Notes: a model not told the origin generated them from the letters alone. A stretch of DNA of 64,000 bases from an uncultured Candidatus Bathyarchaeia archaeon (GCA_964655075.1 CAZZLD010000008.1:380-64379), one strand, 5' to 3'; positions 30,480 through 49,920 are shown, counted from the first letter of the stretch. Numbers and translations are program-made.

Positions 30480-30480
30480 G

Positions 30481-32076: not shown

Positions 32077-32122
32077 AATTCCACAACGTTCTTATCGAAT
32101 CTAACCATATTTTCAATAGGGC

Positions 32123-33718: not shown

Positions 33719-33771
33719 AGGCACTTAAGCACTCAAAAGCGCGCATTGCTAAGCAAATACATCTTTTGTTA

Positions 33772-34749
33772 TTAGCTCTGAGTTTTATCTGAACACATGT
33801 CACAGTATCCGAGTATTAGTTTCTGATTTTCTATTAGTTTCGAAAGTTTTTCAAGGAACTCGATGAATTCATTCAGAAGATTGTCTAACTTCTTTCTCTT
33901 CAAGACAAGAGTTTCAATTGATCGTCTTATTTGTTCATCCTTTTCCAACTCGTCAACAATTTTTATGACGTTTTCGCATTGCCGTTTTTTTCCTTGCACC
34001 AATCGAGAAAAAGCGCCTTTTGAGACGAAAAAGACATTCGGCTTTTCTCTATCCTCATTAACCTGCATTTCTCCTTCGAAAAGTTTTCTTCCGTACTTAA
34101 TCATTGCTGCTATATCTTGATAGATAATATAGCTAAGATGCTTCGCCCCAAAATATTCCTTAGGCGGCTGGCCACGAAAGTCGTGAGTAGCTAGACCTGT
34201 TTGCATAGATACTTCATTCGCGAGGTTAGTGCATATCGCCTCGAAAACGCTTTTCGCCTCTTTCATATAATTGCTGTAATCCTTTTTGAGCTGAATCCAA
34301 TTCCTATGTTGCTTAGGATATCCCTTGGACAGGTGCTGGAAAAGCTCCCCAGAATATTTGAAGTCAGGATCCCTAGGAAGAGTAACAGTGACTTCGCGGT
34401 CAACAACCAGATTTCCCATTGTTGAGCTTTCAATCGTAACTACCCCTCCTATGACCACAGTGCCTCTATCCACACCTCGAAGAAGATTTATCCAAGGATC
34501 AATAGCGTGCTCTCGTAACACTTTCATGTGCACAATCTCAGAGGGTTGCTTTGGCGTGGTTTCTTTTGTTTTTACCTCTGGTTTCTTCTCGGTTTCCTTT
34601 GGCAAATAGCTTTGGACTATACCGGTTATAGCTGCAATTGAAGCAACAAGGATCGAAGTAATTTCCCATGTTAGAATTGCTAAAGCTCCTAAAGCAAGAG
34701 AAACAGAAACACCAAGAATGCCGATAATAACAACAATCTTGCGGAGCAT
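33772..34749 (-). CDS. membrane-anchored hypothetical protein
   Basis: 325 aa, two N-terminal TM helices, a Lys/Glu-rich helical C-terminal domain. A+T-rich. Confidence 0.5.
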   Translation of the reverse strand: MLRKIVVIIGILGVSVSLALGALAILTWEITSILVASIAAITGIVQSYLPKETEKKPEVKTKETTPKQPSEIVHMKVLREHAIDPWINLLRGVDRGTVVIGGVVTIESSTMGNLVVDREVTVTLPRDPDFKYSGELFQHLSKGYPKQHRNWIQLKKDYSNYMKEAKSVFEAICTNLANEVSMQTGLATHDFRGQPPKEYFGAKHLSYIIYQDIAAMIKYGRKLFEGEMQVNEDREKPNVFFVSKGAFSRLVQGKKRQCENVIKIVDELEKDEQIRRSIETLVLKRKKLDNLLNEFIEFLEKLSKLIENQKLILGYCDMCSDKTQS

Positions 34750-34818
34750 AAATGTTAATAATTTATAATTACAATAAAATCTTTTTTACGTGTTGTGTGT
34801 TGTTTTTTTGTTGGTTGG

Positions 34819-34977
34819 TTATGTTTTTTTGCTGAAGATTGTTTTGATGGGGAGTGTTATGCCGATTGTGAAGAGTGTGGCTCCGAGTGTGAAGGTCATG
34901 CTGCTCAGGGTCAGCTCGAAATATCCGGTTACGACCTTGTAACCGATCAAGCTCCCCCAAGTTACGACACCAGACAC
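34819..34977 (-). CDS. candidate 52-aa two-helix membrane peptide (below ORF-track cutoff)
   Basis: Hand translation: VSGVVTWGSLIGYKVVTGYFELTLSSMTFTLGATLFTIGITLPIKTIFSKKT. GTG start 9 nt after AAGGAGG. Confidence 0.3.
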   Translation of the reverse strand: MSGVVTWGSLIGYKVVTGYFELTLSSMTFTLGATLFTIGITLPIKTIFSKKT

Positions 34978-35161
34978 CAAAAGAGCCCTCCTTAAGAGAA
35001 TAAGTTATCCCCAAACCCAAACCCCTAACCTTCCCTCTTTTTTGTACATTTCAGTGCATTACGGCTCATTAATATATGTGAGGCATTTATTCTTTGCGCC
35101 GCAATGCTAATAAGTAATATACAGCCTTGACTGTAGCAAAGATCGGGGAGATGAGTAAAGC

Positions 35162-35335
35162 ATGAGAACGGTGCTAAAGAAAAAGAAAAAGTGGATGACG
35201 ATACAGCTGCCGGAAGGCCTAATTCAGCAAGTAGACAAGGCCATTGCAACTCCGGGACTCGGCTACACTTCCAGAAGCGAATTCATCAAAGAGTCTGTGC
35301 GGATGAGAATAGCGGAACTCCAGAAGCGGAAATAA
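35162..35335 (+). CDS. ribbon-helix-helix (CopG-like) DNA-binding protein, 57 aa (below ORF-track cutoff)
   Basis: Hand translation: MRTVLKKKKKWMTIQLPEGLIQQVDKAIATPGLGYTSRSEFIKESVRMRIAELQKRK. Classic RHH strand-helix-helix pattern. Confidence 0.6.
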   Translation: MRTVLKKKKKWMTIQLPEGLIQQVDKAIATPGLGYTSRSEFIKESVRMRIAELQKRK

Positions 35336-35436
35336 ACAAGCGCGCACATTTTGCATCTCCATTGAGCTATTTGGCTGTTTTAGGTTGAAAAAATGAAAAA
35401 CCCATATGCGCGCGCATAGTAGAATAAGGGTAAAGG

Positions 35437-36018
35437 TTATTTCCCGTTAGATTTCGGTATTCCCAGCCATCTGGGAGTGCGATTCACGTATTTTCGATAG
35501 TCGTCTCCGTACATGTAAAGGCAGTAACGTTCTTCAGCTGATAAATTCGCGTTGAGCACAATAAACAACACCGCGGTTAAGAGAAGATACAACCAAGAAG
35601 CGCAAGCTATTCCCAAACCGATCTGCATCAGAAGCAAACCAACGTACATGGGGTTCCTCGAAAAACGATAAAGACCCTCGGTGACGAGCTTGTCCTTAGG
35701 AGCAGCAGCGAAATTCACAACCGCAACAACGGCGAAAACCACCCCAAACGCAAAGACAAAGAGACCACCGAACAGCCACGTTGCACCAAGTTGCAGAGGC
35801 AAAAAAACAGCATAAACAAAAGAAGAGAACAGAGGCAAGAAAACGGCATTCATGACCAATCTCTCCTTTCTAGTCAGCTGAAAATCCCCTGATTGCCCAG
35901 ATTCCCTAGCAGCCGTCACCCTCACATCAAAAAAGAACAGGATCAGCATAGGAACAACAAGAACCCAAGCATTCCACAAGCCCAACTCAAACGCCGGCAC
36001 AAACGACAACACCTTCAC
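35437..36018 (-). CDS. isoprenylcysteine carboxyl / phospholipid methyltransferase-family membrane protein
   Basis: YRFSRNPMYVGLLLMQIGLGI signature, multi-TM. Confidence 0.7.
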   Translation of the reverse strand: MKVLSFVPAFELGLWNAWVLVVPMLILFFFDVRVTAARESGQSGDFQLTRKERLVMNAVFLPLFSSFVYAVFLPLQLGATWLFGGLFVFAFGVVFAVVAVVNFAAAPKDKLVTEGLYRFSRNPMYVGLLLMQIGLGIACASWLYLLLTAVLFIVLNANLSAEERYCLYMYGDDYRKYVNRTPRWLGIPKSNGK

Positions 36019-36087
36019 CCCAGAAACCTAATTCTACAACAAGGATAAATATAGTTTCTGAATTGTTAAATTAAATGCAGGTAGAAA

Positions 36088-36369
36088 ATGAAACTTAGGA
36101 AACGGGTTATAAGGCAGTTTGTTAAAATAGTCCTAGTGGTGACTCGGAACTTGAAGGTCAGCGTCGTGGTTGAACGGGATGAAGACGGATGGTTCGTAGG
36201 CTCGGTTCCTGAGCTTCCAGGCTGCCACACCCAAGCAAAAAGCTTAGATGAACTGATGAAGCGGATGAGGGAGGCGGTGGAGGCTTATCTGGAAACCGAG
36301 GGCAAAAAAGCCGTAAAAGACCTGAAAACAGAATTCGTAGGCGTACAGCTTTTGGAAGTTGAGGCTTAA
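36088..36369 (+). CDS. hicB: HicB-family antitoxin
   Basis: VVVERDEDGWFVGSVPELPGCHTQAKSLDEL (UPF0150/HicB fold). Confidence 0.7.
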   Translation: MKLRKRVIRQFVKIVLVVTRNLKVSVVVERDEDGWFVGSVPELPGCHTQAKSLDELMKRMREAVEAYLETEGKKAVKDLKTEFVGVQLLEVEA

Positions 36370-36374
36370 ACCTC

Positions 36375-36605
36375 ATGGCACTCAAGCCAACACCACCTAA
36401 TAAAATAATAAAAGCGCTAATCAAACTCGGCTTCAAAATTGTCCGACAAAAAGGAAGCCACATGGTGCTTAAGCATTCTGATGGAAGAATAACAGTTGTT
36501 CCCATTCACCCAGAAGAGGAAATAGGTAGAGGCCTCCTAGCAAAAATTATCAGAGACACAGGTTTATCAAAAGAAGAATTTCTCAGAACCTTAGAAGAGG
36601 CCTAG
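36375..36605 (+). CDS. hicA: HicA-family mRNA interferase toxin
   Basis: IIKALIKLGFKIVRQKGSHMVLKH (YcfA/HicA motif). 5-nt gap after hicB. Confidence 0.75.
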   Translation: MALKPTPPNKIIKALIKLGFKIVRQKGSHMVLKHSDGRITVVPIHPEEEIGRGLLAKIIRDTGLSKEEFLRTLEEA

Positions 36606-36687
36606 ACTTTTCCACCCAAAGAAGTCAGGAAACACAGACTATGCTCTCAACCTTACATACAGATAAGATGAAAAGGGGCGAATCAAT

Positions 36688-36915
36688 TTGGAGAAAGAAC
36701 CCTTAAAAGTTTGGTTCGATCCAGAAGGCGACCTGCTGGAGGTAACCCTGAGCAAACCGAGAAAAGGCTTCTTCAAAGACGTAGGCGACGACATCTTCCT
36801 AAGAGTAGACGAAAAAGGAAACATCCTAGGATTCGCCATCCTCAACGCCATGAAAAGAACAAAAAAACTCAGAGAAGTAAACCTACCCCTAAAAGCATCC
36901 TTCTCAACAACCTAA
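36688..36915 (+). CDS. DUF2283-family small protein
   Basis: KVWFDPEGDLLEVTLSK...IFLRVDEKGNILGFAILN. Confidence 0.6.
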   Translation: MEKEPLKVWFDPEGDLLEVTLSKPRKGFFKDVGDDIFLRVDEKGNILGFAILNAMKRTKKLREVNLPLKASFSTT

Positions 36916-36941
36916 AACCCGAAAAGACACCACACAACATT

Positions 36942-37052
36942 CTAGGCCAGGAAGCTGTTTTTCTCTTGGTTGATTATGGCTGCGTCGTAGTTGTCTAGGC
37001 TGGCTGCGTCCCGCTTCATAGCCGAATCCACCGCCTCAAACCACCACAGGAA
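36942..37052 (-). pseudogene. psmB 3'-end fragment, copy A (most diverged)
   Basis: Direct nucleotide similarity to 48510-48590. Translates to AVDSAMKRDAASLDNYDAAIINQEKNSFLA* after a 1-nt indel. Confidence 0.8.
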
Positions 37053-37114
37053 GTTTTAAGGCTATAAACCACAAACAACAATTAACAATAACCTACAAAT
37101 CCAGACTGGAGGAG

Positions 37115-37624
37115 GTGAGAGATTTGGAAACTAAAGAGATGTCTTTCGAAGAGAAGTACGACAAGCTCTACGACCAGTACGTCCTTACAGACGTTATAGC
37201 CTGGGCTTTCGCTAAGGAGATGGGACTCACAGACAAGTACTTGGACTACCTGATGAAGACTTATAAAAAGACGATGCCATCAATCATGGGTTACGCCTTC
37301 AAGTTCATCAAAATGCTATCACCAGGTAGAACCTTCAAAAAGTTTGTCGAGGGCCTCTTAAAAGATGGCCAAGTTACAGAGCCGTTGTCCAACACGGAAA
37401 TCGTCAGTCTTTCTGACCGAGAAGCAGTAATCAAATATAAGAACTCTGTAATGCTAAAAAAGTATAGGGACGCAATGAAAAAAGCAGGTCTTAAGCTCGA
37501 TTTGAAGGAATACTGGGAACTTAGCATGGAAGCAGGCAAAGACATGATGAAGGATTTCGGGTTTGATCTGACATCACGTATCGAAGAAGACTCCACAATA
37601 ACCATAATAAAGTTGAAGAAATGA
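37115..37624 (+). CDS. hypothetical Lys-rich helical protein
   Basis: 169-aa ORF. No family recognised. Confidence 0.45.
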   Translation: MRDLETKEMSFEEKYDKLYDQYVLTDVIAWAFAKEMGLTDKYLDYLMKTYKKTMPSIMGYAFKFIKMLSPGRTFKKFVEGLLKDGQVTEPLSNTEIVSLSDREAVIKYKNSVMLKKYRDAMKKAGLKLDLKEYWELSMEAGKDMMKDFGFDLTSRIEEDSTITIIKLKK

Positions 37625-37765
37625 CCCAACTCTAGAAGGCTTAAATGCCCAAAAGAGTCCTCCTTAAGAGTATAAGTTATACCTACACACACTTTTTTCT
37701 GGGTCCGCTTAGGCTCTAACCGCTCGTTAAGCATTTAAGAAAGGACATTCTAAGAGGACAGACAG

Positions 37766-38059
37766 GTGACTTATTTGGATGAAAAAGTTTTTAGATCAAT
37801 ATTCGGGGGAACAGTCCTGATTGCAGGCTTAATGATGCTTGCTCTAGGAATCCTTTCATACGCAAGTATGCCAGGCTTTGTTTTGGCATTCGCAGGTTTA
37901 TTCTTTGCCGTATACGGGGCTGTAATTTACACAGGTGGACAGACCCCCATCAAAACACCACAAGATAAACTGTATTGCAAAAAATGCGGAAAAGAAGTAA
38001 AGCAAGACTTCAATTTATGTCCATACTGCGGCGAAAAGCTGGTCATTGAGAAGAAATAA
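37766..38059 (+). CDS. membrane protein with C-terminal zinc ribbon
   Basis: Two TM helices followed by CKKCGKEV...CPYCGEKL. Confidence 0.55.
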   Translation: MTYLDEKVFRSIFGGTVLIAGLMMLALGILSYASMPGFVLAFAGLFFAVYGAVIYTGGQTPIKTPQDKLYCKKCGKEVKQDFNLCPYCGEKLVIEKK

Positions 38060-38283
38060 GAATGCACGCGCAAGCTATATGTTAAACTTTAATCCCAAAC
38101 CCAAACCCCCAAACCTTCTCGCTCAATCATCGACTCAAACGCATACACGTCCTCTTACTCTCACTCACATACTCACTCAACGCGCGCACACGCGCTCAAA
38201 ATTCGCGTGCGTTAATTCTTTGGTTTCGCGCGCGCACATTAAAACTATAAATCAGCTGGTCACAGTAAGTTCTGGAGATCAAC

Positions 38284-38547
38284 ATGTTCTTTGTCACCCT
38301 CGCGAAGATGAAAGGAAAGATGACGCCAGCCTTCATAGAAGCCACCAAGAAGACCTGCAAAAGTCCCCCTCCAGGCATAAAGTACCACGACATACTCTGG
38401 ACCTTGGGACAATACGACTTCGTCATAATCTACGAAGCACCCGACGAGAAACAAGCAATAAAATGGGCCCTACCGTGGGCCGACTTCTGCGAAACCCAAA
38501 CCATGACCGCGGTCCCACACGAAGAAGCACTAAAGCTCCTCAAATAA
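38284..38547 (+). CDS. GYD-domain protein
   Basis: MFFVTLAKMKGK...ILWTLGQYDFVIIYEAPDEK. Confidence 0.65.
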   Translation: MFFVTLAKMKGKMTPAFIEATKKTCKSPPPGIKYHDILWTLGQYDFVIIYEAPDEKQAIKWALPWADFCETQTMTAVPHEEALKLLK

Positions 38548-38623
38548 CCCCCCCCCTTTTTATAACGGTTTACACGCGCACCCTCCCACAAAACGCGCCA
38601 CACGAAAAGTTTTATCCTTTCAG

Positions 38624-39253
38624 ATGGAAATACTGCAAAGCATGCTCTATTCAAGAGAAAAAGCAGCAGGAGCACTCTTCTTCATCGCAGCCACCCAGTT
38701 CGTCCTAGGCCTCACCATCGCAGAGGCACTGTACCCCGGCTACAGCGTGTCCGACAACTACGTAAGCGACCTCGGAGTCGGACCGTCCGCCATAATCTTC
38801 AACTCATCCACCTTCCTCGCAGGATTACTACTGCTCATCGGAACGTACCTCCTAAGACACAACTCAGACCTTAAAACCGTCAACACGCTGCTCCTCCTAT
38901 CGGCTGTAGGATTAATGGGCGTCGGCATCTTCACGAAACATTACAGAACCATTCACGGCGCGGTGGCCACGATGGCCTTCTTCTTCTCCGGGTTAACAGC
39001 CATAACATCATTCAAAGTGCTGAAAAAACCATTGTCCCTGATAAGCATAATACTCGGAGCGATGACGCTTGGAGCATTAGCCCTCTTCTCAGGCGGCATG
39101 GTCACAAGCGGCTCACTAACCAGCGACATCGCGTATGACAGCAGTTTCTACTTGGGCTTAGGCCCCGGCGGAATGGAACGCATGATCGTCTACCCAGCCC
39201 TCATGTGGCTCGCCGGATTCGGCGGACACCTACTTACAAAGCGAGAAACATAA
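38624..39253 (+). CDS. DUF998-family membrane protein
   Basis: About 6 TM helices. N-terminal AGALFFIAATQFVLGLTIAEALYPGYSVSDNYVSDLG. Confidence 0.55.
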   Translation: MEILQSMLYSREKAAGALFFIAATQFVLGLTIAEALYPGYSVSDNYVSDLGVGPSAIIFNSSTFLAGLLLLIGTYLLRHNSDLKTVNTLLLLSAVGLMGVGIFTKHYRTIHGAVATMAFFFSGLTAITSFKVLKKPLSLISIILGAMTLGALALFSGGMVTSGSLTSDIAYDSSFYLGLGPGGMERMIVYPALMWLAGFGGHLLTKRET

Positions 39254-39406
39254 ACAACCCACTGTATCGGAGATTAAATTTTAACCCCAAAAGTGGTTCC
39301 TGCCGTGACTGTGGCTACAGGTTTTCCTGAGCCAAATTTTTTATACCTTGATCCATGATAGGGAGCCAGGGCTGTCTTTGCCAGTAGAAGAGGGAGACTA
39401 AAATAG

Positions 39407-40078
39407 GTGGGGCTTTTCAATTACTACATTAAGAATTGGTATTACATCGGCAGTCTTCTGTTTGTAGCGTTGACGTTTCTGGTTGGCTTTTTTGGGGAGG
39501 CAATCGATCCACTTCAAAAGGTCCTCTTACTGAGTTACATGGCCTTACTTGTACACCAGTTTGAGGAATATGCCATTCCAGGCGGATTTCCCGCTGTCTT
39601 TAATATCGGATGGAACAAAGAGAAGGAAGCCCCCGACAGGTATCCGCTGAACCGAAAAACCGCCTTTGTTGTCAATGTTCTTTGCGCATATCCATTTTAC
39701 ATTATCGCCATTGTCTTTCCAGGCTTGATTTGGCTTGGGCTTGCGCAAGTTCTATTTGGTATGGCCCAACTCTTTATTCACGGGATTTTTATCAACATAA
39801 AAATGAAGTCCCTCTACAATCCGGGGCTGGGGGCGGTTGTGTTCCTTCACTGGCCAATCGGCATCTACTACATCTGGTACATCTATGCAAATGGGCTCAT
39901 GCAACCCTGGTATTGGATTGCAGGCTTTGTCTTAACACTGCTGGTCGCAGTCCTGCTTGTTGACCTGCCTGTTACTAAACTTAAAGACAAGAACTCGAAA
40001 TACCCATTTTCAACAGAAGAAATGGAGCGGTTCCATGTTAAGGAAAAAATGGCGGAGTTGGCAAAAAACCAAACGTGA
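39407..40078 (+). CDS. HXXEE-domain membrane protein
   Basis: LVHQFEEY motif, multi-TM. Confidence 0.55.
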   Translation: MGLFNYYIKNWYYIGSLLFVALTFLVGFFGEAIDPLQKVLLLSYMALLVHQFEEYAIPGGFPAVFNIGWNKEKEAPDRYPLNRKTAFVVNVLCAYPFYIIAIVFPGLIWLGLAQVLFGMAQLFIHGIFINIKMKSLYNPGLGAVVFLHWPIGIYYIWYIYANGLMQPWYWIAGFVLTLLVAVLLVDLPVTKLKDKNSKYPFSTEEMERFHVKEKMAELAKNQT

Positions 40079-40080
40079 AC

Positions 40081-40458
40081 TCACTTTCTTTTCTCTAATA
40101 GTTCATCCAAGGCCTCTTTTCCAAAGAGCTCTTGGTAAATTGCCATGGAACCAAGCAGTTTGCTGCCGAGAATTTTTTTGGTTTCCTCTATATCGCTTGC
40201 AAGCTTTTCTTGTTCAAGTTTTCCCTTGGGAGTAAGTTCATAGTATACTCTGCCAGAGGATTCATCCTTTGTAGAAGTGATCAGCCCATTTTTCTCCATG
40301 CGTCTTAGAATGGGATAGACTGTTCCAAAGCTTATCCGGATGTGCCCATTAGTTATTTTTTCCATTCGGCTGGTCAGTTCATACCCGTAGATTGGACCGT
40401 CTTTCATAAGCCGGAGAAAGACAGGTAGGTACACTTTTGAGGAGAATCCTTTCATCAT
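40081..40458 (-). CDS. padR: PadR-family transcriptional regulator
   Basis: YGYELTSRMEKITNGHIRISFGTVYPILRRMEKNGLI. Confidence 0.8.
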   Translation of the reverse strand: MMKGFSSKVYLPVFLRLMKDGPIYGYELTSRMEKITNGHIRISFGTVYPILRRMEKNGLITSTKDESSGRVYYELTPKGKLEQEKLASDIEETKKILGSKLLGSMAIYQELFGKEALDELLEKRK

Positions 40459-40485
40459 ATTTCTAAATTACTACCCCACCGTCTT

Positions 40486-40553
40486 TATATCGAAACGATA
40501 TATTTATATGTTTCTGCAGGAGTAGTGTCTTTGCGATAGTATCGTTTCGATAC
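40486..40553. promoter_or_regulatory. two palindromes sharing an ATCG-N3-CGAT core between padR and the ABC exporter (candidate operators)
   Basis: TATATCGAAACGATATA (40486-40502) and GTATCGTTTCGATAC (40539-40553), read directly. Confidence 0.4.
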
Positions 40554-40767
40554 AATCGAAAAAGAGGTAAAGTATGATGATTGGTAGCGGGTTTAACCAA
40601 GGCCTTTCTGTTGAAATCGAAGGTAGGGACTACCCGGGATGGGCATTTCCAGGTAATAAGCATTTTCAGCAGAAGAAATTGAGCGTTTCCACCTCCTCGG
40701 CTAATTTGGTATTCAAAAAGGGAATTTTCAATTATTCATGAAAATATAAAGACAAGATGATAAAAAC

Positions 40768-41757
40768 ATGACACAACAATCAGGAATTCAGCTTAAAGAA
40801 TCTCAACAAGATGAATTGGCTATCGAAGCACACGGGCTTGTTAAGGTATTTGGCGATACTCGCGCAGTTGATGGCGTGGATTTAGCCATCCCGACGGGCT
40901 GCATATACGGCCTGCTTGGGCCAAACGGTGCTGGTAAGACAACAATAATCAATATTCTTGCTACACTTCTAAAGCCAAATGCCGGGACTGCAAAAATCTT
41001 CGGTCATGATGTGAAGCAGGAAGCCCACATTGTCCGTCAGCTCATCAGCGTGACGGGTCAATACGCCACTTTAGACGAGAAACTATCTGCAACTGAGAAC
41101 TTGACCATTTTTGCGCTTTTGCTAGGATACAGCCGATCCGAAGCTCACAAAAAGGCTGCAGATCTGCTTGAGTTGTTTGGACTGACCCCTGTAGCCAATC
41201 GAACAGCCGATAAATTCTCGGGGGGCATGCGACGAAAACTCGATTTGGCGGCCAGTCTTCTTAACCCATCGCCACTCATCTTTCTTGATGAGCCTACAAC
41301 AGGTCTCGATCCGGGCACAAGGATTCAGATGTGGGACATTATTAGGCGACTTGCTTCAAAAGGGTGCACGATCCTTTTAACCACACAGTACCTTGATGAG
41401 GCCGACCAACTTGCCGACCGAATAGTAGTGATTGACCAAGGACGTGTAGTAGCTGAAGGCACGCCTGATGAACTGAAAAAGCAAGTCGGAGTTGCGGCAT
41501 TGCATCTAAGGATTATCGATGCAGAAAACCTTGACAAGGCAATGTGCATAACTCAAGAAGTGCTAAAGGTTAAAGCATCAACATCCGAGCCCACATTGAT
41601 TACCGCCCCGATGGCAAATCCAGAGCGAGTAACAGACTTGCTTCTTGCCTTGAAAAAGGCAGAAATCCACCTTGCTGAGGTAACCGTCCAAAAACCAACG
41701 CTCGATGAAGTTTTCCTAGCTCTGACAGGCCATAGCAAACATGAGGAGAAAGTGTAA
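40768..41757 (+). CDS. ABC transporter ATP-binding protein (DrrA/ABC-2 type)
   Basis: Walker A GPNGAGKTT, signature FSGGMRRKL, Walker B LIFLDEPTTGLD. Confidence 0.9.
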   Translation: MTQQSGIQLKESQQDELAIEAHGLVKVFGDTRAVDGVDLAIPTGCIYGLLGPNGAGKTTIINILATLLKPNAGTAKIFGHDVKQEAHIVRQLISVTGQYATLDEKLSATENLTIFALLLGYSRSEAHKKAADLLELFGLTPVANRTADKFSGGMRRKLDLAASLLNPSPLIFLDEPTTGLDPGTRIQMWDIIRRLASKGCTILLTTQYLDEADQLADRIVVIDQGRVVAEGTPDELKKQVGVAALHLRIIDAENLDKAMCITQEVLKVKASTSEPTLITAPMANPERVTDLLLALKKAEIHLAEVTVQKPTLDEVFLALTGHSKHEEKV

Positions 41758-42574
41758 CCAAATGATCAATGAAGAAATTATCCCTGCTGCTGAGCGCAAA
41801 CTAAAGAACCGCACAAGTCTTCGCATGACTCTAAGCAATTCGTTGACGATGGCCTATCGCAACGTAATTTTGATTCGCCGGACGCCGCAGCAGCTGTTTG
41901 ATGTCACGGTACAGCCTATTCTTTTTACAGTCCTGTTTACGTTTCTCTTCGGAGGGGCAGTCTCTGGCGACGTGCAGAGTTACCTGCCGATAATCATCCC
42001 AGGCGTTTTGGGCCAGACGTTGTTAACTGCGTGCATGGCTACGGGCGTCCAGCTTCGCGAGGATATGGATAAGGGAGTGTTCAATCGTTTCAAATCCTTC
42101 CCGATGTCCCGTATGGCTCCACTAGCTGGACCGCTACTGGCCGATGTGATCCGTTACGGCATTGCCACAGTCCTGACACTCGTTATAGGCTACCTCCTCG
42201 GTTTTCGTTGGGCAAGTATCGACGGTGCCGTAGTGGGTTGCCTTCTCGTCATTTTCGCTGCATGGTCTATTAGCTGGATATTTGCTTTGCTTGGGACCGT
42301 TGCCCACACGGCACAAACCGTGCAGGGGATCTCCATGGCCATCATGTTTCCACTGGCATTTCTGTCCGGCGCCTTCGTACCCACCAATACTCTGCCCGAT
42401 TGGCTGCAAGTTTTTGTCAACATAAACCCATTGACCTATATCGTAAGCGCTACCAGACAGCTTTTCAACTACGGTACTATCGGCAATGACTTTTGGCTAT
42501 CACTTGTAGGGGCATTAGCAGTTGTAGCAATATTTGCCCCCATTACCTTAGTCGCTTACATGCGGAAAGCATAG
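41741..42574 (+). CDS. ABC-2 type transporter permease
   Basis: 6-TM ABC-2 permease pattern. Overlaps the ATPase gene. An alternative ATG lies at 41762. Confidence 0.8.
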   Translation: MRRKCNQMINEEIIPAAERKLKNRTSLRMTLSNSLTMAYRNVILIRRTPQQLFDVTVQPILFTVLFTFLFGGAVSGDVQSYLPIIIPGVLGQTLLTACMATGVQLREDMDKGVFNRFKSFPMSRMAPLAGPLLADVIRYGIATVLTLVIGYLLGFRWASIDGAVVGCLLVIFAAWSISWIFALLGTVAHTAQTVQGISMAIMFPLAFLSGAFVPTNTLPDWLQVFVNINPLTYIVSATRQLFNYGTIGNDFWLSLVGALAVVAIFAPITLVAYMRKA

Positions 42575-42659
42575 GAGGAATCTGTCATGCCCAATTCGAC
42601 ATCTAATCCGAAATGCGCGCGTACAATATGTAGCGGAATGATGGTGTTAAGATCGATAG

Positions 42660-43184
42660 ATGATGAATAAAATAGAAGAGCAGGGTTGTTTATTGAAGCC
42701 AATTGTTTTATACTCTTCCAAAAGCGGTAACACAGAGAAGATTGCAAGAGAAATCGCTTCTGAACTCAACTGTCGATGCGAAAAAATAGACAAGACTTTC
42801 GACTCAACCATCATAGACTTGGATAATTTTGACCTTGTGTTTCTTGGGACTGGCAATTATGACGCGAACCCCAATGCTGAACTACTCAATTACCTAAAAG
42901 AAATGAATCCAAAAAACAACGTGGATTTTGCTCTTTTTATGACATGGTTGGGTCGTGGAACAACCGATAAAGGTGTTTATAACGAAGTAAAGGCGGCTGT
43001 TGAGGCTAAAGGTCAGAGACTCTTGGAAAACTGCTATAGTTGCTTATTCGAAGGACACTCAATAATAGCACGAGTAATAGGACGAATAGTATTCCCTAAT
43101 GCAAAGGGGCATCCAACTGCCGAAGACCTAAGTAATGCAAGGAAATGGGCAAAAGAAATCGTAAGATCAATCAATGACTTTTAG
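42660..43184 (+). CDS. flavodoxin-like protein
   Basis: VLYSSKSGNTEKIAREIA FMN-phosphate loop. Confidence 0.7.
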   Translation: MMNKIEEQGCLLKPIVLYSSKSGNTEKIAREIASELNCRCEKIDKTFDSTIIDLDNFDLVFLGTGNYDANPNAELLNYLKEMNPKNNVDFALFMTWLGRGTTDKGVYNEVKAAVEAKGQRLLENCYSCLFEGHSIIARVIGRIVFPNAKGHPTAEDLSNARKWAKEIVRSINDF

Positions 43185-43210
43185 GATAAAGTGCTGTAGT
43201 GGGGTTATTT

Positions 43211-44018
43211 TGTGTGTGGGATTAAATTTTAATCCAACCAACCTGAAAATCAGGCTGGAAAATAACTGCAAGTCAGCTGGAAAGCAGGTGGATATTGAAG
43301 AGGGTAGTAGGCAGGTTGCATATCGGGGTTGAAAAGCAACTATGTTATTGGAAAAAATTTTGAAAAAACCAATAATGTGTCGTGTTTTCTATTAAAATAT
43401 GTATATGGTGGATAATGAAAGAAACAAGTCATTGTTGCTTTTCGTTTTTGCTAATTAAATAATATCTTCCGTCCTTTGTTGCAACGACACCAGAAGGTAT
43501 GATTGTATTAGCACTCATTTTCAGCCACCTTTCATCAAGTTTGAGTTCTTGGGCTGTTTTAGCAGTCTCTTCAGAAGTAGCTCCCACTTCTTTGAGTGCC
43601 TTTTTAGTACGCTCCAATATCCATCCTGCATAAGCTGCTGCTGCCAATTGAATCACCTCAACTATTATGTTAATAAGTGATATATTTTAAGTTCGTGTTA
43701 AAAATCCTAGAAAAAATCTAGAATTCCTGCTAATTATGAGAAAAAACTCATTTACCCTTTCTATAAAGAATTTAACTTTTTCAAAACTACAATTCTTGGA
43801 TTCCACTCTTTCTTTTCGTTTCTTAAATATTTGGCGAAAAGCAAGGCTTCTTCATCAATTAAAGTCTCAATAGTCTATACCTTTTACCAATCCTTTTTTC
43901 TTGGTACTTGAATTATCTTACGCTGACGCCATCTTCACTTCTTCAAGGCAGGCGTCAGCTATCAGAATCAGTTTTGGTTGGTTGGTTGGATTAAATTATA
44001 CCCCAAAACCCACACACA
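43211..44018. repeat. imperfect terminal inverted repeats bracketing ~0.74 kb (MITE-like or small-element candidate)
   Basis: Left arm TGTGTGTGGG-N8-TTAATCCAACCAACC (43211-43243). Right arm is the reverse complement with an N14 spacer (43980-44018). Both blocks are exact. Confidence 0.45.
43429..43656 (-). CDS. hypothetical small protein inside the IR-bounded segment
   Basis: 75-aa ORF. No family recognised. Confidence 0.35.
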   Translation of the reverse strand: MIQLAAAAYAGWILERTKKALKEVGATSEETAKTAQELKLDERWLKMSANTIIPSGVVATKDGRYYLISKNEKQQ

Positions 44019-44173
44019 TATATGAATCACACCGACTTCTCCTCTCTGTTACGACATGTTGGACCATATGCCTTAAAACGAATACTTGAACTACAAAAAC
44101 TCAGCAATGAATGGAAAAAAGATAAAAAAAGAAAAAGGACTGTGAACGAAGAATAGAAAGTCAACTTGTGAGT

Positions 44174-44332
44174 TTAAAATCTATTTCTTCTCGGCGGTCT
44201 TCTCTTTGCATAGCATTCTCGGCAGTATACCGGTCTGCTTCCATCAGGTTTGAACGGAACTTCACATTCTTGGCCACAATCAGCACAAACTGCCTTATGC
44301 ATTTCTCTCGGTTCCCTTCTCTCATACGACAT
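44174..44332 (-). CDS. CxxC-CxxC zinc-ribbon protein, 52 aa (below ORF-track cutoff)
   Basis: Hand translation: MSYERREPREMHKAVCADCGQECEVPFKPDGSRPVYCRECYAKRRPPRRNRF. Confidence 0.55.
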   Translation of the reverse strand: MSYERREPREMHKAVCADCGQECEVPFKPDGSRPVYCRECYAKRRPPRRNRF

Positions 44333-44498
44333 CCAGATTACACCTCCAATTCGCTGAACGAACCAGTCTTCGTTTAGAACACTAATCCTTGAACATTTAA
44401 TGTCGAAAAACCGCCTTATAAATTATGCGGGTTTGGAGTCAAAATCACATCCCACACAAAAAAACTAAAAAAGGATACGCAACGCAAAGCAGAGAAGC

Positions 44499-44642
44499 TT
44501 ACCTTACAAATTTGCTTCGGTTCCTTTTGAATTTCTTCTTACAGTCCACGCTACAGAAATAATATGTTTCCCCTTCATGGTTGATCTTGAATTTCGCTGT
44601 CTTTTCATTCAAAATCACGCCGCAAACAGGATCCCTAGGCAT
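44499..44642 (-). CDS. YHS/TRASH-domain metal-binding protein, 47 aa (below ORF-track cutoff)
   Basis: Hand translation: MPRDPVCGVILNEKTAKFKINHEGETYYFCSVDCKKKFKRNRSKFVR. Confidence 0.6.
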   Translation of the reverse strand: MPRDPVCGVILNEKTAKFKINHEGETYYFCSVDCKKKFKRNRSKFVR

Positions 44643-44950
44643 TGTTTCATCCTTCTCCCTATCTAGTGGTAAACAACATAAGATAAGGCTGCCTGCTTAT
44701 AATCCTTAATGGTCCCAGAGCCTTCCATTCATTTCAAAAGCCCCTCCCCCGCACATAAGTCCCCTCTCTCGGCAACATTTAATTATCCGCCTCTAAATGT
44801 TACGACAAGCGCCATTTCAATTCGCGTGAGGCCTCCCACAGAAACTGCGTCCATTTGTCCATTCCACAAACATAGCTGGATGCACACGCAATAAAAACAA
44901 AAAATAAAAAAGCGGATTACGTAGATGTAGAACGCCTATGCACGGTTATC

Positions 44951-45160
44951 TCATTCAGAGACTGGTTTAACGTTGACGGCTCTCGGACCTCTAGTTGTGT
45001 CTTTCACTTCGAACTCCACTTTTTCGCCTTCAGTAAGACTGCGCTTGCCCTGAATCTCCGAGTTATGAACAAAGACTTCTTTGCCGTCTTCGGTTTTAAT
45101 GAAGCCGTAGCCCCTCATGCCGAGCCATCTCGTCACTGTACCCTTGGTCATATCTTTCAC
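44951..45160 (-). CDS. cspA: cold-shock domain protein
   Basis: RNP1/RNP2: RGYGFIKTEDGKEVFVHNSEI. Confidence 0.85.
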   Translation of the reverse strand: MKDMTKGTVTRWLGMRGYGFIKTEDGKEVFVHNSEIQGKRSLTEGEKVEFEVKDTTRGPRAVNVKPVSE

Positions 45161-45692
45161 CTCGACCCTGTTAGTCAGCTAGAATCATTCTCAGAAAACG
45201 TAAAACCGCCTATAACCGTTCTACATTCTTCGAAAGAACCCTAACTGCTTAACCCACCATGCGGCAGTCCCCACTATTAACCTTTGCCCTGCTATGCGCG
45301 CGAGAGTAAAACCGAAACATTAACTTTCTTTTGGGCTGTGGAATTAGCTTGGTCCAAGAGTCCCAGAGTAAATGTTTTTAAGGAGCCATCACGGTTTTGT
45401 TGTAAAAAGCGGAGGTCACAACTTGGCTAAAAAAAGCAAGAAAGCGAAAGCTGCAGGTCGAGAACAGCACAGACAACTTCAAAGGGCTAAAAAAATGCAG
45501 AAGAAACAGAAAAAGAATGTCGCGCTCCCTGTAAAACATAGAAAAGGAAAATAGCCTTTCTTCTTCTTACCGCATCCCTCTATTATGCGCGCGCTTATTC
45601 CACAAGCCATAAAAACATTCAAAACACAAATTCGCTAAGTCGCCCGCTCTCCCTTTCTTCTTTGCCACGCGCACTAAAAAATTGATCTGTTT

Positions 45693-45807
45693 TTAAGCTA
45701 AGAGCTGTTTTTTCTGTTGGTCTGTTAGCGCCCTATAGCCCTTCTCATTGATTATGGCTACGTCGAAGCTGTCTCCGCTGGCTGCATCCCGCTTCATAGC
45801 CGAATCC
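45693..45807 (-). pseudogene. psmB 3'-end fragment, copy B
   Basis: 45706-45807 matches 48466-48567 at 94/102 nt by hand alignment. Translates to ADSAMKRDAASGDSFDVAIINEKGYRALTDQQKKQLLA*. Confidence 0.85.
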
Positions 45808-45880
45808 GCAACCTCTTATTCCATGCTTCAGAAATATGCTCGTAATTAAAGCAGCTAACATCAATAGAAAATGGGGGACA

Positions 45881-48337
45881 TTAAGTGGTTTTGCGCAAGC
45901 GTTTCGTCAAGATCGCGATAACTAAAGTGCCTACCAACAGCGGCAGAATTATGAATGTTGAAAACTCAGGAAACACCGTTGTGCCATAGATTATGACTGG
46001 GTGAGTGCTATGACTGAAGGTGAAGTAAAGGAAAGAGTGCGTAGCATTTTGCGTCAACGTCGGAGTTACGGGCAAATAATCAACTGAGACTGTATACGGT
46101 CCTCCAAGAAGTTCGTTGGGAATTGTAACGTTACAGAAGCCCACAGTGCCTGAAGCCCCGGTAACGTTGAAACCTACCGATTTATTTTCTCTATCAAAGA
46201 CAAAAGTTGAAGGGTAAACAGTAGAGTTGGTATCGACTATAACGTTAAAGGTCCTGTTGTCCACAACAATGGGAAAAGTGTAGATTTCTGATGTCCCATA
46301 ATAGCAGGTTGACCAGAGGTCCACGCCATAGTTGCTATTGAAGTACCAGCCTTGCAGCCATGACGAACGCACAAAGAATTCAGCATCGTGCCACCAAACC
46401 ATGTACATCAAGACCTCATTTGCCAACGTGTTCATTTCGTTGCTAACTCTCACCAGTTCGGTTACGTTGCCTGCTGCGTCAGCGGCAACGGCTTGCGCGT
46501 AGAGGTCATCCAGCGCAGTTATGTTCCATTGGTTCCAACTAGGATATGCACCCCTTGAATAATACATTGGTTGCAACCAATCCAAAACGTGGTTGAAGTC
46601 TCCGATCCAGCCACCCATGTACGAGTCAATCTGGTGCCTGGAGGCCAAAGTGTATTGTTGACCGCCTGGAACAAGCACAACTTCCCAAGTCAGACCATAA
46701 ATTCTCCGACTTATTGCGTTCAGATTATCAACCATCGTAGTTAGAACCTTTATGAATGTCTCTGCTGCCGTTTGCACATAAATCCTGATAGTCTTTGGAT
46801 TATGCGTAGAAAATGAGTTGTCAACCACTCCAGCCGGAATCTTTGTTCCGTTGTAGTAGTACATGTCGTAGTCCGTGCTGTTCAGCGGGTTCGCGTAGGC
46901 ATCACTGATCAGTTCCGCAGCCTTTATTAAGTTGAAGGAGAATGTCGGCCCAATGTCTGGGTTATAAGAGCCTGCTGGCGCTGTTCCCGGTGGAATAATG
47001 TTCTTTGCTAAGAGACTCAGCCTGTAGTTGATGTTTATGTTGGCGTAAGTCATGTTAACCGCGCAGGCTGCGGCCATTCTCAGCCTCCAGTCAGAGAAGG
47101 GCTGCCATGACCTGAATGAGCCGTCGGTGTTGGTGACGTTGGTATTGAAGTCGAGCCACCAAGTGTTGAATGTTGGATATACTCCGTGAACGGTCACACC
47201 CGAAATTATGGAAGATAGAACTCCATCGTCGATCCAAGTGTCTCGGTCAATCACAGAGAATATGTTAGCTTCAGGAACCTGTATTGCAGTAACGTCTCCG
47301 TTCTTCAAGTCGAGCAGCCTCGTCGTGAAGCTAGGCTGATTTCTGAATTCTATTGTCTCTATCCTCGTCTTGCCCGCTGGCGGCAAGTTCATGTCGTTTG
47401 GACCGCCCCAATAGTCGCCGTAAGCCTTCAAGATAATATCGTAGGTGAATGGATCAGCACTTTCAACGTAGTAGGGGCCTGTGCCAAAGGTCCAACCGTC
47501 TTCTGGCATGTTAAAGTAAGTGTCTCCGTCACCAGCTCTGTGTATGAAGTATGTGGTGTAGTCTCTATCCCATCTTCCCCATCCGCCGTATTCATAGTCT
47601 TTTCTAACGGTTTCGGTGGGCGAAACTATGCCCGCCCAAGGTCCTGCCATAATGGGTAGAAACTGTGTGGTTGGAGTGGCTATGTTTAGCCTAACCTTGT
47701 AAGTGCCCAGTATTTCCACGAAGTTCAAGGCCAAAACGTCCGCAACCCAGCTTGCGTCATATGATGGATTAGCTCCCATGGCGGAGAAGACATTTCCGTC
47801 AGGATCGAGTAGTTGTTGAACCATCCATCCCGCTTGGCTTCCATGCACCGGAGCGACGGGACCGCCGCTTGTGGCATCCATCATGAGAAGCCTGTTAAGG
47901 CTGAACCACACGGCTATCGCGTTGAACGGAGTTCCATCCTGAAACGTTATTCCCTGCCGCAAAGTGAAGTTGTAGTGCAATCCGTCATCGCTGACTGTAT
48001 AGCTCTCCGCTAACCACGGAATAACTTCAGTGGAGCTGCTCCCGTTATACCACAGCAACATCTCAACGCTATGCCAAAGGGTCCAATAGTCAAATTGATA
48101 GTAGGAAACGTGGGGATCCATCCACTGGAAGCTGTTCCCAGACTCGTAAATCAACTTGTTATCTGCGACAAAGCTTGGAACTTCAGCTTGAATCTGTTCA
48201 GAGTCAACAACATAAAAGTTAGCCGCGTGAGAAGACATAGCTTCAGCCACGTGGAAAACCGTAAGAATGGTCAAGAGTGCAAACAGGACCACTACGTATG
48301 CCGACAGGCGTCTCGTTTTTAGAATTTCCATTTCCAC
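45881..48337 (-). CDS. family-5 (Opp/Dpp-type) substrate-binding protein with extra C-terminal domain and PEF-CTERM anchor
   Basis: 818 aa. Signal peptide. IPWLAESYTVSDDGLHYNFTLRQGITFQDGTPFNA SBP_bac_5 signature. C-terminus FPEFSTFIILPLLVGTLVIAILTKRLRK. Confidence 0.75.
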   Translation of the reverse strand: MEMEILKTRRLSAYVVVLFALLTILTVFHVAEAMSSHAANFYVVDSEQIQAEVPSFVADNKLIYESGNSFQWMDPHVSYYQFDYWTLWHSVEMLLWYNGSSSTEVIPWLAESYTVSDDGLHYNFTLRQGITFQDGTPFNAIAVWFSLNRLLMMDATSGGPVAPVHGSQAGWMVQQLLDPDGNVFSAMGANPSYDASWVADVLALNFVEILGTYKVRLNIATPTTQFLPIMAGPWAGIVSPTETVRKDYEYGGWGRWDRDYTTYFIHRAGDGDTYFNMPEDGWTFGTGPYYVESADPFTYDIILKAYGDYWGGPNDMNLPPAGKTRIETIEFRNQPSFTTRLLDLKNGDVTAIQVPEANIFSVIDRDTWIDDGVLSSIISGVTVHGVYPTFNTWWLDFNTNVTNTDGSFRSWQPFSDWRLRMAAACAVNMTYANININYRLSLLAKNIIPPGTAPAGSYNPDIGPTFSFNLIKAAELISDAYANPLNSTDYDMYYYNGTKIPAGVVDNSFSTHNPKTIRIYVQTAAETFIKVLTTMVDNLNAISRRIYGLTWEVVLVPGGQQYTLASRHQIDSYMGGWIGDFNHVLDWLQPMYYSRGAYPSWNQWNITALDDLYAQAVAADAAGNVTELVRVSNEMNTLANEVLMYMVWWHDAEFFVRSSWLQGWYFNSNYGVDLWSTCYYGTSEIYTFPIVVDNRTFNVIVDTNSTVYPSTFVFDRENKSVGFNVTGASGTVGFCNVTIPNELLGGPYTVSVDYLPVTPTLTQNATHSFLYFTFSHSTHPVIIYGTTVFPEFSTFIILPLLVGTLVIAILTKRLRKTT

Positions 48338-48452
48338 TCGTTATAATAGTCTGTACATGAGGTATTTAGCTTTTATACCTTCGCAGTTTTTAATGCACAG
48401 CCAAAACAAGCGGATTTAGTAGCTTTATGCAAGAATTTGCTTATTGCGGATT

Positions 48453-49079
48453 TTAGGTTAGGATTTGTTTTTTCTGTTGGTCTGTTAACGCCTTGTAGCC
48501 TTTCTGGTCGATTATGGCTACGTCGAAGCTGTCTCCGCTGGCTGAATCCCGCTTCATAGCCGAATCCACCGCCTTAACCACCACAGGAAGAAGCCCCTCC
48601 ACCAAAACATCCTCCTTATACTGATCCTCCAAAACGCCGTAAGCAATAGGCGAACCCGAACCCGTAGCCACACATTTTTCCTCAGCGAGACTACCCAGAG
48701 GATCAACCGTGAAAACGTGAAAACCACTGTCGTCAACGCCGCCCACGATAACCTGCGTAAGCAAAGTTCCACGAGCCGAAAACAGCACGTTAGCGATGAT
48801 GCGAGCCGCTGACTGAACAGGCATACGCCGCCCCATGTTAAGCTCATAAAGCCTAGCGTTAACCGTAAGCATCTCCACCGTCCACTGAGCGTCGGCTACA
48901 CCACCAGCAATCGTCATAGCCAAATGATCCGCAACCTTGTAAATCTTCTTCCCCCGCTTATGTGCCACAAAAGTCCCCATCGTAACCCGCGTGTCAGAGG
49001 CTAAAATAACGCCGTCTCGGCAAACCACGCCAATAGTGGTGGTGCCCTTCAGAGCCAACTTATCGCGAATTTCACTCAA
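48453..49079 (-). CDS. psmB: proteasome beta subunit
   Basis: Propeptide followed by the Thr1 context KG/TTTIGVVCRDGVILASD. Full length, 208 aa. Confidence 0.9.
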   Translation of the reverse strand: MSEIRDKLALKGTTTIGVVCRDGVILASDTRVTMGTFVAHKRGKKIYKVADHLAMTIAGGVADAQWTVEMLTVNARLYELNMGRRMPVQSAARIIANVLFSARGTLLTQVIVGGVDDSGFHVFTVDPLGSLAEEKCVATGSGSPIAYGVLEDQYKEDVLVEGLLPVVVKAVDSAMKRDSASGDSFDVAIIDQKGYKALTDQQKKQILT

Positions 49080-49212: not shown

Positions 49213-49920
49213 ATGATAGGCGCAGTAATCTTCGTAATATTCTTCCTAATCTTCACCCTAATATCCGCCCTAATCTACACCGACCTACCGCCAGCCGCCA
49301 TAATACTCGAATTGTTCGGCATAACCATGACCGGAATTCAATACGGCGACTGGATAATCGGCCTCATAAACGGCGTAATCTACGGCTTCATAATCTGGCT
49401 CATCTACAGCATAATCAGACTCGCCACAAGAAGAGAAAAACCCGAACGCGTAATCGTTAAACCCGTTGTTACACCAGCCAAGCCAGCAGTGACAGCAAGG
49501 GCACCCTCCACGCTAGACCGAGGAATAGAAGACATCGAAGGAATAGGGCCCTCCTACGCGGAGAAACTGAAAGGCGCCAACATAACAACCATAAAAGACC
49601 TGCTGAAGGCAGGCGGCACCAAAAAAGGAAGAGAAACACTGACGAAGATAGTCGGCGCGTCCGAGAAAACCGTGCTCAAGTGGGTCAACCGTGCAGACCT
49701 CTTCCGCATAAAAGGCATAGGCAAAGAATACTCCGAGCTCCTGGACGTGGCGGGCGTCAACACCGTAGTCGAACTCTCCAGAAGAAACGCAGAAAGCTTA
49801 CGCGAGAAACTGGAAGAAGTCAACGTGGAAAAGAGAATCGTGAAGCAGCTACCGTCTGTTGACACCCTCAACGAATGGATAAAACGCGCCAAAAGGCTGA
49901 AACGCCGAGTGGAATACTAA
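49213..49920 (+). CDS. membrane-anchored DUF4332 (tandem HhH) protein
   Basis: N-terminal TM helices. IEGIGPSYAEKLKGANITTIKDLL and IKGIGKEYSELLDVAGVNTVVELS. Confidence 0.6.
   Translation: MIGAVIFVIFFLIFTLISALIYTDLPPAAIILELFGITMTGIQYGDWIIGLINGVIYGFIIWLIYSIIRLATRREKPERVIVKPVVTPAKPAVTARAPSTLDRGIEDIEGIGPSYAEKLKGANITTIKDLLKAGGTKKGRETLTKIVGASEKTVLKWVNRADLFRIKGIGKEYSELLDVAGVNTVVELSRRNAESLREKLEEVNVEKRIVKQLPSVDTLNEWIKRAKRLKRRVEY

Follow-up and report, generated by a model that had tools for sequence, protein, structure and literature searches.

An island of gene modules bordered by displaced psmB 3' ends separates psmB from fttA in an uncultured Bathyarchaeia archaeon

We analysed a stretch of 64,000 nucleotides (the window) from an uncultured Candidatus Bathyarchaeia archaeon (GCA_964655075.1 CAZZLD010000008.1:380-64379), in which psmB, the gene for the proteasome beta subunit, is followed by two displaced copies of its own 3' end and is set apart from its ordinary neighbour fttA, which encodes the transcription-termination factor aCPSF1. 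The best matches of psmB are Bathyarchaeia sequences; identity is 84-88% in close relatives and drops to 65-76% in a set of 80 other species of the class. The features on which the argument rests are listed here, with coordinates counted from the first nucleotide of the window and strand given as (+), (-) or, where none is assigned, (.).

48453-49079 (-): psmB, intact proteasome beta subunit gene, 208 amino acids (Pfam Proteasome, E 6e-54)
48451-48590 (-): copy C, the repeated part of the live psmB 3' end, pairing with copy B over 48451-48567 and with copy A over 48505-48590
45691-45807 (-): copy B, a displaced psmB 3' end, 88.9% identical over 117 nt to 48451-48567 (E 5.8e-39; BLASTN, psmB region against the window)
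36958-37053 (-): copy A, a degenerate psmB 3' end; BLASTN match of 36967-37053 to 48505-48590, 88.5% over 87 nt (E 6.2e-26)
9975-48452 (.): the whole island between psmB and fttA, 38.5 kb (the two genes are adjacent in 81/81 other loci)
8058-9974 (-): fttA/aCPSF1, the ancestral downstream neighbour of psmB (Pfam KH_TffA, Lactamase_B, Beta-Casp, RMMBL)

The three copies in direct orientation described in the initial annotation were borne out by the BLASTN search, in which nothing else in the window had E < 2, and a repeat search of the window returned the same three-member family. The repeats are real and far beyond chance, and all are sense-oriented, following the intact psmB downstream. Copy B is in frame and ends at its own stop codon (...DSAMKRDAASGDSFDVAIINEKGYRALTDQQKKQLLA, then stop), and the earlier count of 94/102 identical nucleotides between 45706-45807 and 48466-48567 proved exact on recounting. 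When the gene is compared with copy B, a 57-nt block with one mismatch is followed by a homologous tail at 80% identity, a pattern which would fit the usual picture of an incoming element bringing a diverged replacement gene end. Copy A had been described as about 85-90% identical, with a 1-nt indel and a gap of about 27 nt, and these details likewise held: its alignment to the gene contains one 1-nt indel, the translation past this insertion reads ...AVDSAMKRDAASLDNYDAAIINQEKNSFLA up to its own stop codon, 27 nt are deleted, the conserved SGD has become SLD, and the copy extends about 23 nt deeper into the gene than copy B. The putative psmB core lies around CTTCCTGTGGTGG. An inverted-repeat scan detected no hairpins or inverted repeats within the psmB-end repeats, and inverted repeats are likewise absent from the ends of the two segments that the copies delimit (segment I between copies C and B, segment II between copies B and A).

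For comparison we used the psmB loci of these 80 species, whose proteins are 65-76% identical to that of the window, along with a few contigs from metagenomes, here numbered with the prefix L, and the spacing of psmB and fttA was scored in the 81 loci with sufficient downstream sequence. In every one of them fttA starts 19-77 nt past the psmB stop codon on the same strand. In the window the two genes are 38.5 kb apart, with fttA in the orientation of psmB, its usual neighbours SepF and PUA beyond it, and the usual Fe-ADH gene upstream of psmB. Because these flanks are collinear yet 38.5 kb apart, and psmB and fttA are adjacent elsewhere, we consider 9975-48452 to be inserted DNA and not the product of rearrangement. 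This agrees with the original view of the copies as footprints of insertions at the psmB 3' end that rebuild the gene, and the search for empty psmB sites in related genomes suggested at that time is answered by the 81 directly adjacent pairs. The extent first assigned to the insertion, about 11.6 kb, has to be enlarged to the whole of 9975-48452, including remnants of a head-tailed virus; the psmB-end copies mark modules within the first 11.6 kb only. In none of the 80 other Bathyarchaeia species do psmB-end fragments occur within 10 kb of psmB.

On the opposite side of psmB, a gene for a membrane-anchored DUF4332/helix-hairpin-helix protein (49213-49920) stands between Fe-ADH and psmB. It occupies the same position in L001, L092, L094, L109 and L160, is absent there in L097 and L110 and, judged by the shorter spacing between Fe-ADH and psmB, is probably absent also in L005 and L020, as befits a second, small, clade-specific insertion.

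Copy A and the sequence around it are not an artefact of assembly: two independent assemblies of this strain in Logan are 100% identical to the window over 26375-40244 and 35517-42159, spanning copy A and its flanks, and psmB-end fragments of like kind occur in relatives whose assemblies come from four separate samples (JGI, ENA and Logan). A metagenome scan with psmB as query returned no additional close relative. The window contains no tRNA genes, which rules out a tRNA gene as the insertion target, and no known RNA family was recognised in the repeats or the island apart from a single sub-threshold snoRNA match.

The clade relatives available for comparison (L001/L004 and L097) have psmB genes 75-84% identical to that of the window, and L093 is closest, at 88%. 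In L001 (psmB 84%) the order is psmB, a radical-SAM gene, psmB fragment f1, a small basic open reading frame (ORF), CSD, three SnoaL genes, a polyketide-cyclase gene, YHS, a zinc finger, fragment f2, PEMT, fragment f3 and Hjc, and L002-L004, from three other samples, show the same arrangement in the parts covered. In L097 (psmB 75%), psmB is followed by 7 kb of other genes, a DUF2283-HicA-HicB module and a psmB fragment at the contig end. The fragments are thus clade-specific and recurrent, with three in L001/L004 and at least one in L097. The first gene after psmB is distinct in eight lineages: a solute-binding protein (SBP) gene in the window, radical SAM in L001, an unknown convergent gene in L094, HSP20 in L093, a small basic ORF and then a SnoaL gene in L109, VapBC in L160, V4R and MEDS in L110, and ORF181 in L097. 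L093 was considered as a clean empty site and rejected: the greater part of the portal gene is missing from it, and in the window the HSP20 gene has no psmB remnant beside it. In L093 (753-1703, compared with window 25369-25994), HSP20 lies 90 nt after psmB; in the window it is 22.4 kb farther downstream.

The comparison with L001 separates the age of the repeats from that of their cargo, and the following features are needed for it.

45881-48337 (-): slot-1 cargo (segment I), an 818-amino-acid SBP with a PEF-CTERM-like tail (Pfam SBP_bac_5, E 1.5e-44)
44036-45690 (-): older part of segment II, common to L001 (collinear with L001 12252-12926, 84%, and 15671-16506, 90.7%)
45423-45554 (+): small basic ORF, in the older part of segment II
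44951-45160 (-): CSD (Pfam), in the older part of segment II
44499-44642 (-): YHS (Pfam), in the older part of segment II
44174-44332 (-): treble-clef zinc finger (Pfam), in the older part of segment II
37054-44035 (.): 7-kb block absent from L001, where the zinc-finger gene runs directly into fragment f2
37054-37118 (-): conserved 'arm' abutting copy A, 65 nt, 97% identical to L001 15604-15670
36061-36947 (.): DUF2283-like/HicA/HicB toxin-antitoxin module (Pfam HicA, E 6e-21; 92.7% identical to L097)
34784-34830 (-): possible fourth remnant, the tail of an f3-type fragment only (90% over 41 nt to the L001 f3 tail, E 2.8e-7)

Copy B, with the small basic ORF and CSD that follow it, is collinear with L001 f1 and its followers (85% identity in the fragments and 84% in the following block). 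Copy A is 95% identical to both f2 and f3 and has derived changes in common with them, including the CCTAGACA motif; its T insertion is common with f2 and its 27-nt deletion with f3. L001 nevertheless has the radical-SAM gene in slot 1 where the window has the SBP gene, and is without 37054-44035. Because both fragments exist in L001 with different slot-1 cargo and without the 7-kb block, the repeats are older than the present cargo between them. The initial annotation had reckoned that insertion would be called into question by relatives which lack the two segments and still carry the fragments; L001 is in part such a relative, and the greater age of the repeats is what it reveals. It also parts the earlier proposal of two successive events, one for each segment: insertion stands, whereas the two-event scheme is too simple, given that copies B and A have L001 counterparts despite the different cargo. 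Slot-1 cargo has been exchanged between the same two repeats, and segment II, first taken for a single unit, is a composite of the older shared part (44036-45690) and a later block (37054-44035). For segment I by itself, the comparison revealed no exact empty site. The fourth remnant, at about 34784-34830, lies in low-complexity sequence and is tentative.

By Pfam, the genes of the 7-kb block are ORF75, flavodoxin, ABC ATPase, ABC-2 permease, PadR, HXXEE, DUF998, GYD, a Zn-ribbon membrane protein and the V4R-like ORF169. The arm contains a promoter-like TATA region and a ribosome-binding site for the outward-facing ORF169. This ORF was considered as a novel recombinase and rejected: its predicted structure (predicted local distance difference test, pLDDT, 88) gave V4R/Bet3/H-NOX-like ligand-binding domains as best folds. 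The ORFs bordering the copies encode the SBP, the small basic protein, the V4R-like protein and the DUF2283-like protein. An imperfect direct repeat of about 23 nt at the ends of the block was downgraded, as the left junction overlaps a GT-rich/ATTAAA motif that recurs within the block, and the resemblance of this junction to the psmB core may be coincidental.

Several further observations concern the cargo. The small basic ORF encodes 43-44 very basic residues (LAKKSKKAKAAGREQHRQLQRAKKMQKKQKKN...) behind a ribosome-binding site and lies directly after B-type fragments in three genomes (window 45423-45554, plus strand; L001 12246-12380; L097 about 16696-16830) at 85-89% nucleotide identity; it has no Pfam match, and in L097 it precedes the HicAB module and not CSD. 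The SBP_bac_5 protein at 45881-48337 (...PEFSTFIILPLL...) and a transglutaminase-like protein at 32123-33718 (...PEPTTILSIFVMF...) both end in PEF/PEP-CTERM-like sorting tails, so that the island probably carries two archaeosortase substrates. The palindrome GGATTAAATTTTAATCC occurs, at three or fewer mismatches, at 39271-39287, 43219-43235 and 43988-44004, all within the 7-kb block, and nowhere else in the window (0.36 expected); at two or fewer mismatches, 2 Mb of fetched loci contain it only in same-strain loci. Two 33-nt inverted copies (43211-43243 and 43980-44012) flank a 75-amino-acid ORF at 43429-43656, and these sequences may be ends resembling those of miniature inverted-repeat transposable elements, or an operator, perhaps for the PadR of the block. 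The GC palindrome ATGCGCGCGCAT is present twice (0.09 expected), just past PEMT at 35406-35417 and just past copy B at 45585-45596; similar CGCGCGC motifs stand after f1 and f2 in L001 and ahead of the basic-ORF region in L097.

The modules and repeats themselves carry evidence that they are, or recently were, mobile. The HicAB module is 92.7% identical between the window and L097, against 70-74% for the backbone, and identity at its third codon positions is 0.91-0.92, where psmB, Fe-ADH and HSP20 of the same two genomes reach only 0.48-0.54. The module, which is also found in an unrelated context in L158, was horizontally exchanged between distant lineages. The L097 fragment is 96% identical to psmB of the window and only 85% to L097's own psmB, and hence came from a window-like lineage. 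The A-type fragments, frameshifted and non-coding, are 95% identical in the window and L001 and the arm is 97% identical, compared with 61-77% at backbone third codon positions. Arm and fragment join at the same nucleotide in three genomes (...TATAGCCTTAAAA|CTTCCTGTGG, common to the three junctions as ...TTAAAA|CTTCCTGTGG, with one C/G difference in CTTC(C/G)TGTGG); unlike these three shared junctions, other fragments start at differing positions in the gene. The gene fronted by the arm differs, being the V4R-like ORF169 in the window, SnoaL in L001 and HicB in L097, where the arm is partly conserved, and the region upstream of the ORF169 homologue in L109 is only loosely similar to the arm. 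In addition, the SnoaL block of L001 ends with the arm where the window has uninterrupted core-like sequence (TTTCTGTGGGAG).

Farther from psmB, the island contains the following viral genes.

29100-30479 (.): TerL, terminase (phrog_2, 3e-45)
23822-25015 (.): portal (Pfam/PHROGs matches)
18194-18604 (.): cement protein (Pfam/PHROGs matches)
17270-18193 (.): major capsid protein, HK97-type (Pfam/PHROGs matches)

These matches point to remnants of a head-tailed virus. The set (16954-25875 and 27240-31941) is interspersed with cellular genes (glycosyltransferase, methyltransferase, HSP20), and no tail or integrase genes were recognised in it. The part at 16954-25875 has a syntenic counterpart in L097/L098, with an identity at the level of the backbone (about 74%), but located on the opposite side of psmB; this placement implies that the psmB segment was inverted. 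The viral set may be what is left of an old provirus, domesticated or defective. The terminase gene is directly followed by 30481-31941, which encodes a 486-amino-acid protein whose N-terminal part is an ABC-type ATPase and whose C-terminal part resembles acetyltransferases, and a homologue of this protein follows the terminase homologue in 15/43 related IMG/VR contigs. In IMG/VR, nine matches to a 17-mer of the arm were all chance on inspection, and a degenerate psmB pattern gave one chance match.

On balance, and with modest confidence, we favour an accretion island at the psmB 3' end that was founded by an integrase and is now integrase-less, the copies being attachment-site-like scars. A DNA circle bringing along a copy of the final 90-170 nt of psmB would recombine with the psmB end in the chromosome, or else with a copy displaced earlier; the incoming end would rebuild psmB, the cargo would come to lie behind it, and the previous end would be pushed downstream as a dead fragment. 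Repeated rounds would stack modules, and recombination between the direct repeats could later delete, swap or re-circularise them, which would explain the turnover of cargo. We take a site-specific recombinase to have catalysed the founding event or events; it would have belonged to an integrating element, most plausibly to the head-tailed virus of the island, and its gene would now be lost or lie elsewhere in the genome, while the present modules (transport, redox, stress and toxin-antitoxin) would be integrase-less cargo. The repeats, the split synteny, the differing cargo of the relatives, the horizontal exchange of one module and the absence of a recombinase gene are observed, whereas a circular intermediate, the kind of recombinase and the sequence in which the events took place are inferred. 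That the flanking sequences are duplicated ends of one essential gene indicates a Campbell-type or site-specific origin, and the succession of gene, cargo and truncated end is expected equally from a site-specific integrase and from host homologous recombination. On this reading, recombination that restores the gene end built the island, and both a lost or trans-acting integrase and single-crossover (Campbell-type) homologous recombination fit. We favour an integrase for the founding events because of the archaeal precedent, the shared junction of arm and core, the pseudo-core insertion in L001 and the transfer between lineages whose divergence makes homologous recombination difficult.

A number of results weigh against this reading. 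The initial annotation had seen no recombinase, Cas1 or transposase between the copies, and extending profile searches to the whole 64 kb (Pfam on ORFs of sizeable length, with PHROGs added for unknown proteins) likewise found no integrase, transposase, Cas1 or resolvase; ORF325, ORF311 and other unknown ORFs had no Pfam or PHROG match. No recombinase adjoins psmB, the upstream genes being DUF4332 and Fe-ADH, and none appears in the precomputed Pfam annotations by which the islands of the relatives were judged. The 5' edges of the fragments fall at no fewer than four positions in the gene (about 463, 490, 506-526 and 575), so that no single core is evident, and some modules consist of a single gene (0.7-2.6 kb), unlike self-sufficient elements. 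Next to fttA a psmB remnant is not detectable (Smith-Waterman score 38 vs 28.6 ± 4.2 for shuffled sequences), and preservation of the original psmB end at that place was rejected on this score. In L160 (2480-3264, compared with L109 2814-2879), VapBC (PIN and antitoxin) directly follows the psmB stop codon and carries no psmB-end duplication, from which it follows that the hotspot also accepts insertions without a fragment. As to the virus, IMG/VR yielded no match to the psmB-fragment pattern, no psmB-like phage attachment site (attP), no psmB-like DNA in the 43 contigs with relatives of the island terminase, and no psmB relative encoded on a viral contig; the viral cluster is inherited at backbone level and lies on the other side of psmB in L097, and its link to the founding event is only a guess.

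The same facts can be read in other ways. It is conceivable that no site-specific recombinase was involved and that, after an initial accident, repeat-flanked modules loop out by homologous recombination, travel by transformation, vesicles or transduction, and re-insert by a Campbell-type single crossover at the psmB end or at an older fragment. Such a process predicts exactly the same layout of gene, cargo and fragment and would sit well with the recombinase gene found nowhere in the window by Pfam or PHROGs, with the variable fragment edges and inferred crossover positions, with a copy A that looks like a mosaic of L001 f2 (5' part, T insertion) and f3 (3' part, 27-nt deletion), and with slot-1 cargo swapped between the same two repeats with no extra fragment left; the psmB ends share near-identical stretches of 26-57 nt across lineages, sufficient for homologous recombination. 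However, it leaves unexplained both the first event, which split psmB from fttA, and the SnoaL block of L001, which ends with the arm where the window resembles the psmB core over no more than 8 nt (TTTCTGTGGGAG); moreover, homologous recombination ought to be inefficient between lineages of just 73-85% identity, and modules have nevertheless passed between them. We regard homologous recombination alone as possible, if rather unlikely. It is less probable still, although small modules of one to a few genes, many of them toxin-antitoxin and each bounded by a repeat, bring it to mind, that the locus is an active system of integron-like or tycheposon-like cassette capture, in which a recombinase encoded elsewhere uses the psmB end as entry site and psmB-derived repeats as cassette boundaries, so that small integrase-less toxin-antitoxin, transport and stress cassettes are inserted, excised and shuffled within and between lineages. 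Slot 1 beside psmB is hypervariable, PEMT stands alone between two repeats in L001, and conservation of the arm and of the non-coding A-type repeats exceeds by a good margin the identity at synonymous sites, suggesting functional sites or recent mobility. Against this, no recombinase is known, the repeats are without hairpin or inverted-repeat structure, the cassette genes face both directions with promoter-like regions of their own, many island genes have no flanking repeat, and the evidence comes from only about five genomes.

Many archaea have two psmB paralogues, and the fragments are degenerate, so that they could conceivably be decayed paralogues, local segmental duplications, a dispersed repeat or assembly chimeras rather than insertion scars. 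At least seven fragments in three genomes, however, are all without the first 460 nt or so of the gene, in the same orientation and at module boundaries, no other copies exist in the window or in the 80 other loci, and independent assemblies agree; an origin other than insertion is accordingly very improbable and largely excluded.

The accretion that we favour can be set beside several known systems. In islands at tRNA genes (pNOB8-type archaeal elements, Prochlorococcus tycheposons), serial integration at the 3' end leaves a ladder of partial genes with cargo between them, including integrase-less segments; in the island the target is a protein-coding gene, and none of the modules yielded a tyrosine recombinase or a replication gene. 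As in pNOB8-type elements, direct repeats derived from the target gene flank the insert, psmB is of full length, and relatives offer empty sites (psmB and fttA adjacent in 81/81 loci; L001 without the 7-kb block), but elements of this tyrosine-recombinase type carry the integrase gene inside, beside the attachment (att) site, and none is present among the window ORFs or in the annotations of the relatives. SSV-type elements are bordered by the Int(N) and Int(C) halves of an integrase gene that contains att, whereas no integrase-like ORF borders the copies. Casposons at the aEF-2 3' end are similar in their choice of a protein-coding gene end and in their tandem insertions, but have Cas1, PolB, terminal inverted repeats and target-site duplications of 14-15 bp, none of which is found in the island, where the repeats are 87-117 nt of gene sequence. 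Integrons, including those in archaeal metagenome-assembled genomes, resemble the island in their ordered small cassettes, rich in toxin-antitoxin genes, beside a fixed entry point; the island differs in having no IntI beside the array, gene-derived repeats without attC-like hairpins, and cassettes that face both ways with promoter-like regions. Elements that exploit Xer/dif (IMEX-like) use short dif-like palindromic sites and the host Xer, and the long gene-end repeats fit these poorly, although a short core within them is conceivable. A head-tailed provirus would have a contiguous morphogenesis module and an integrase and be bounded by att; here the TerL, portal, capsid and cement genes are present, scattered among cellular genes. 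Replacement-type and additive flexible genomic islands resemble the locus in their hypervariable content at one conserved position and in the swapping of cargo between conserved flanks, but the flanks here are duplicated ends of one essential gene. The absence of the defining gene leaves the island unassignable to an integrase-defined family.

Among thaumarchaeal integrated elements, 14/68 lie in 3' ends of protein-coding genes, and re-use of the site forms arrays (PMC6563490). Like the island, these elements target a protein-gene 3' end, restore the gene end, are flanked by direct repeats and form arrays by re-use of a site, and many are cryptic and carry cargo (PMC6563490). They are defined with integrases and have short att sites (13 bp in one example), whereas the island has repeats of 90-150 nt and no integrase; psmB is not among their targets, and here a conserved gene pair is split (PMC6563490).

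The island works like the stacked integrative-element islands at tRNA genes and at some archaeal protein-gene 3' ends, and represents a known kind of process at a new target gene. Our literature search found no report of psmB as an integration site, in line with what the initial annotation had supposed. New, as far as these comparisons indicate, are the psmB target, the split of a psmB-fttA pair otherwise invariant in the class, the small integrase-less modules, and long (90-150 nt) gene-end repeats, conserved between species beyond what neutrality predicts.

Bathyarchaeia are abundant in sediments, very few of them have been cultivated, and their gene gain is poorly known. The locus described here is a clade-specific hotspot at which transport, redox, stress and toxin-antitoxin modules accumulate and turn over, situated at the unreported target psmB, where it breaks up a psmB-fttA pair unvarying in the rest of the class. 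Metagenomes can readily be screened for such islands with the psmB-end repeats as markers, and these repeats could also lead to the responsible recombinase or to mobile circles. Conservation of the non-coding repeats above the synonymous-site level is what would be expected if they are recombinase sites, and if they prove to be working recombination sites, the island would represent a type of gene-capture system so far undescribed in archaea.

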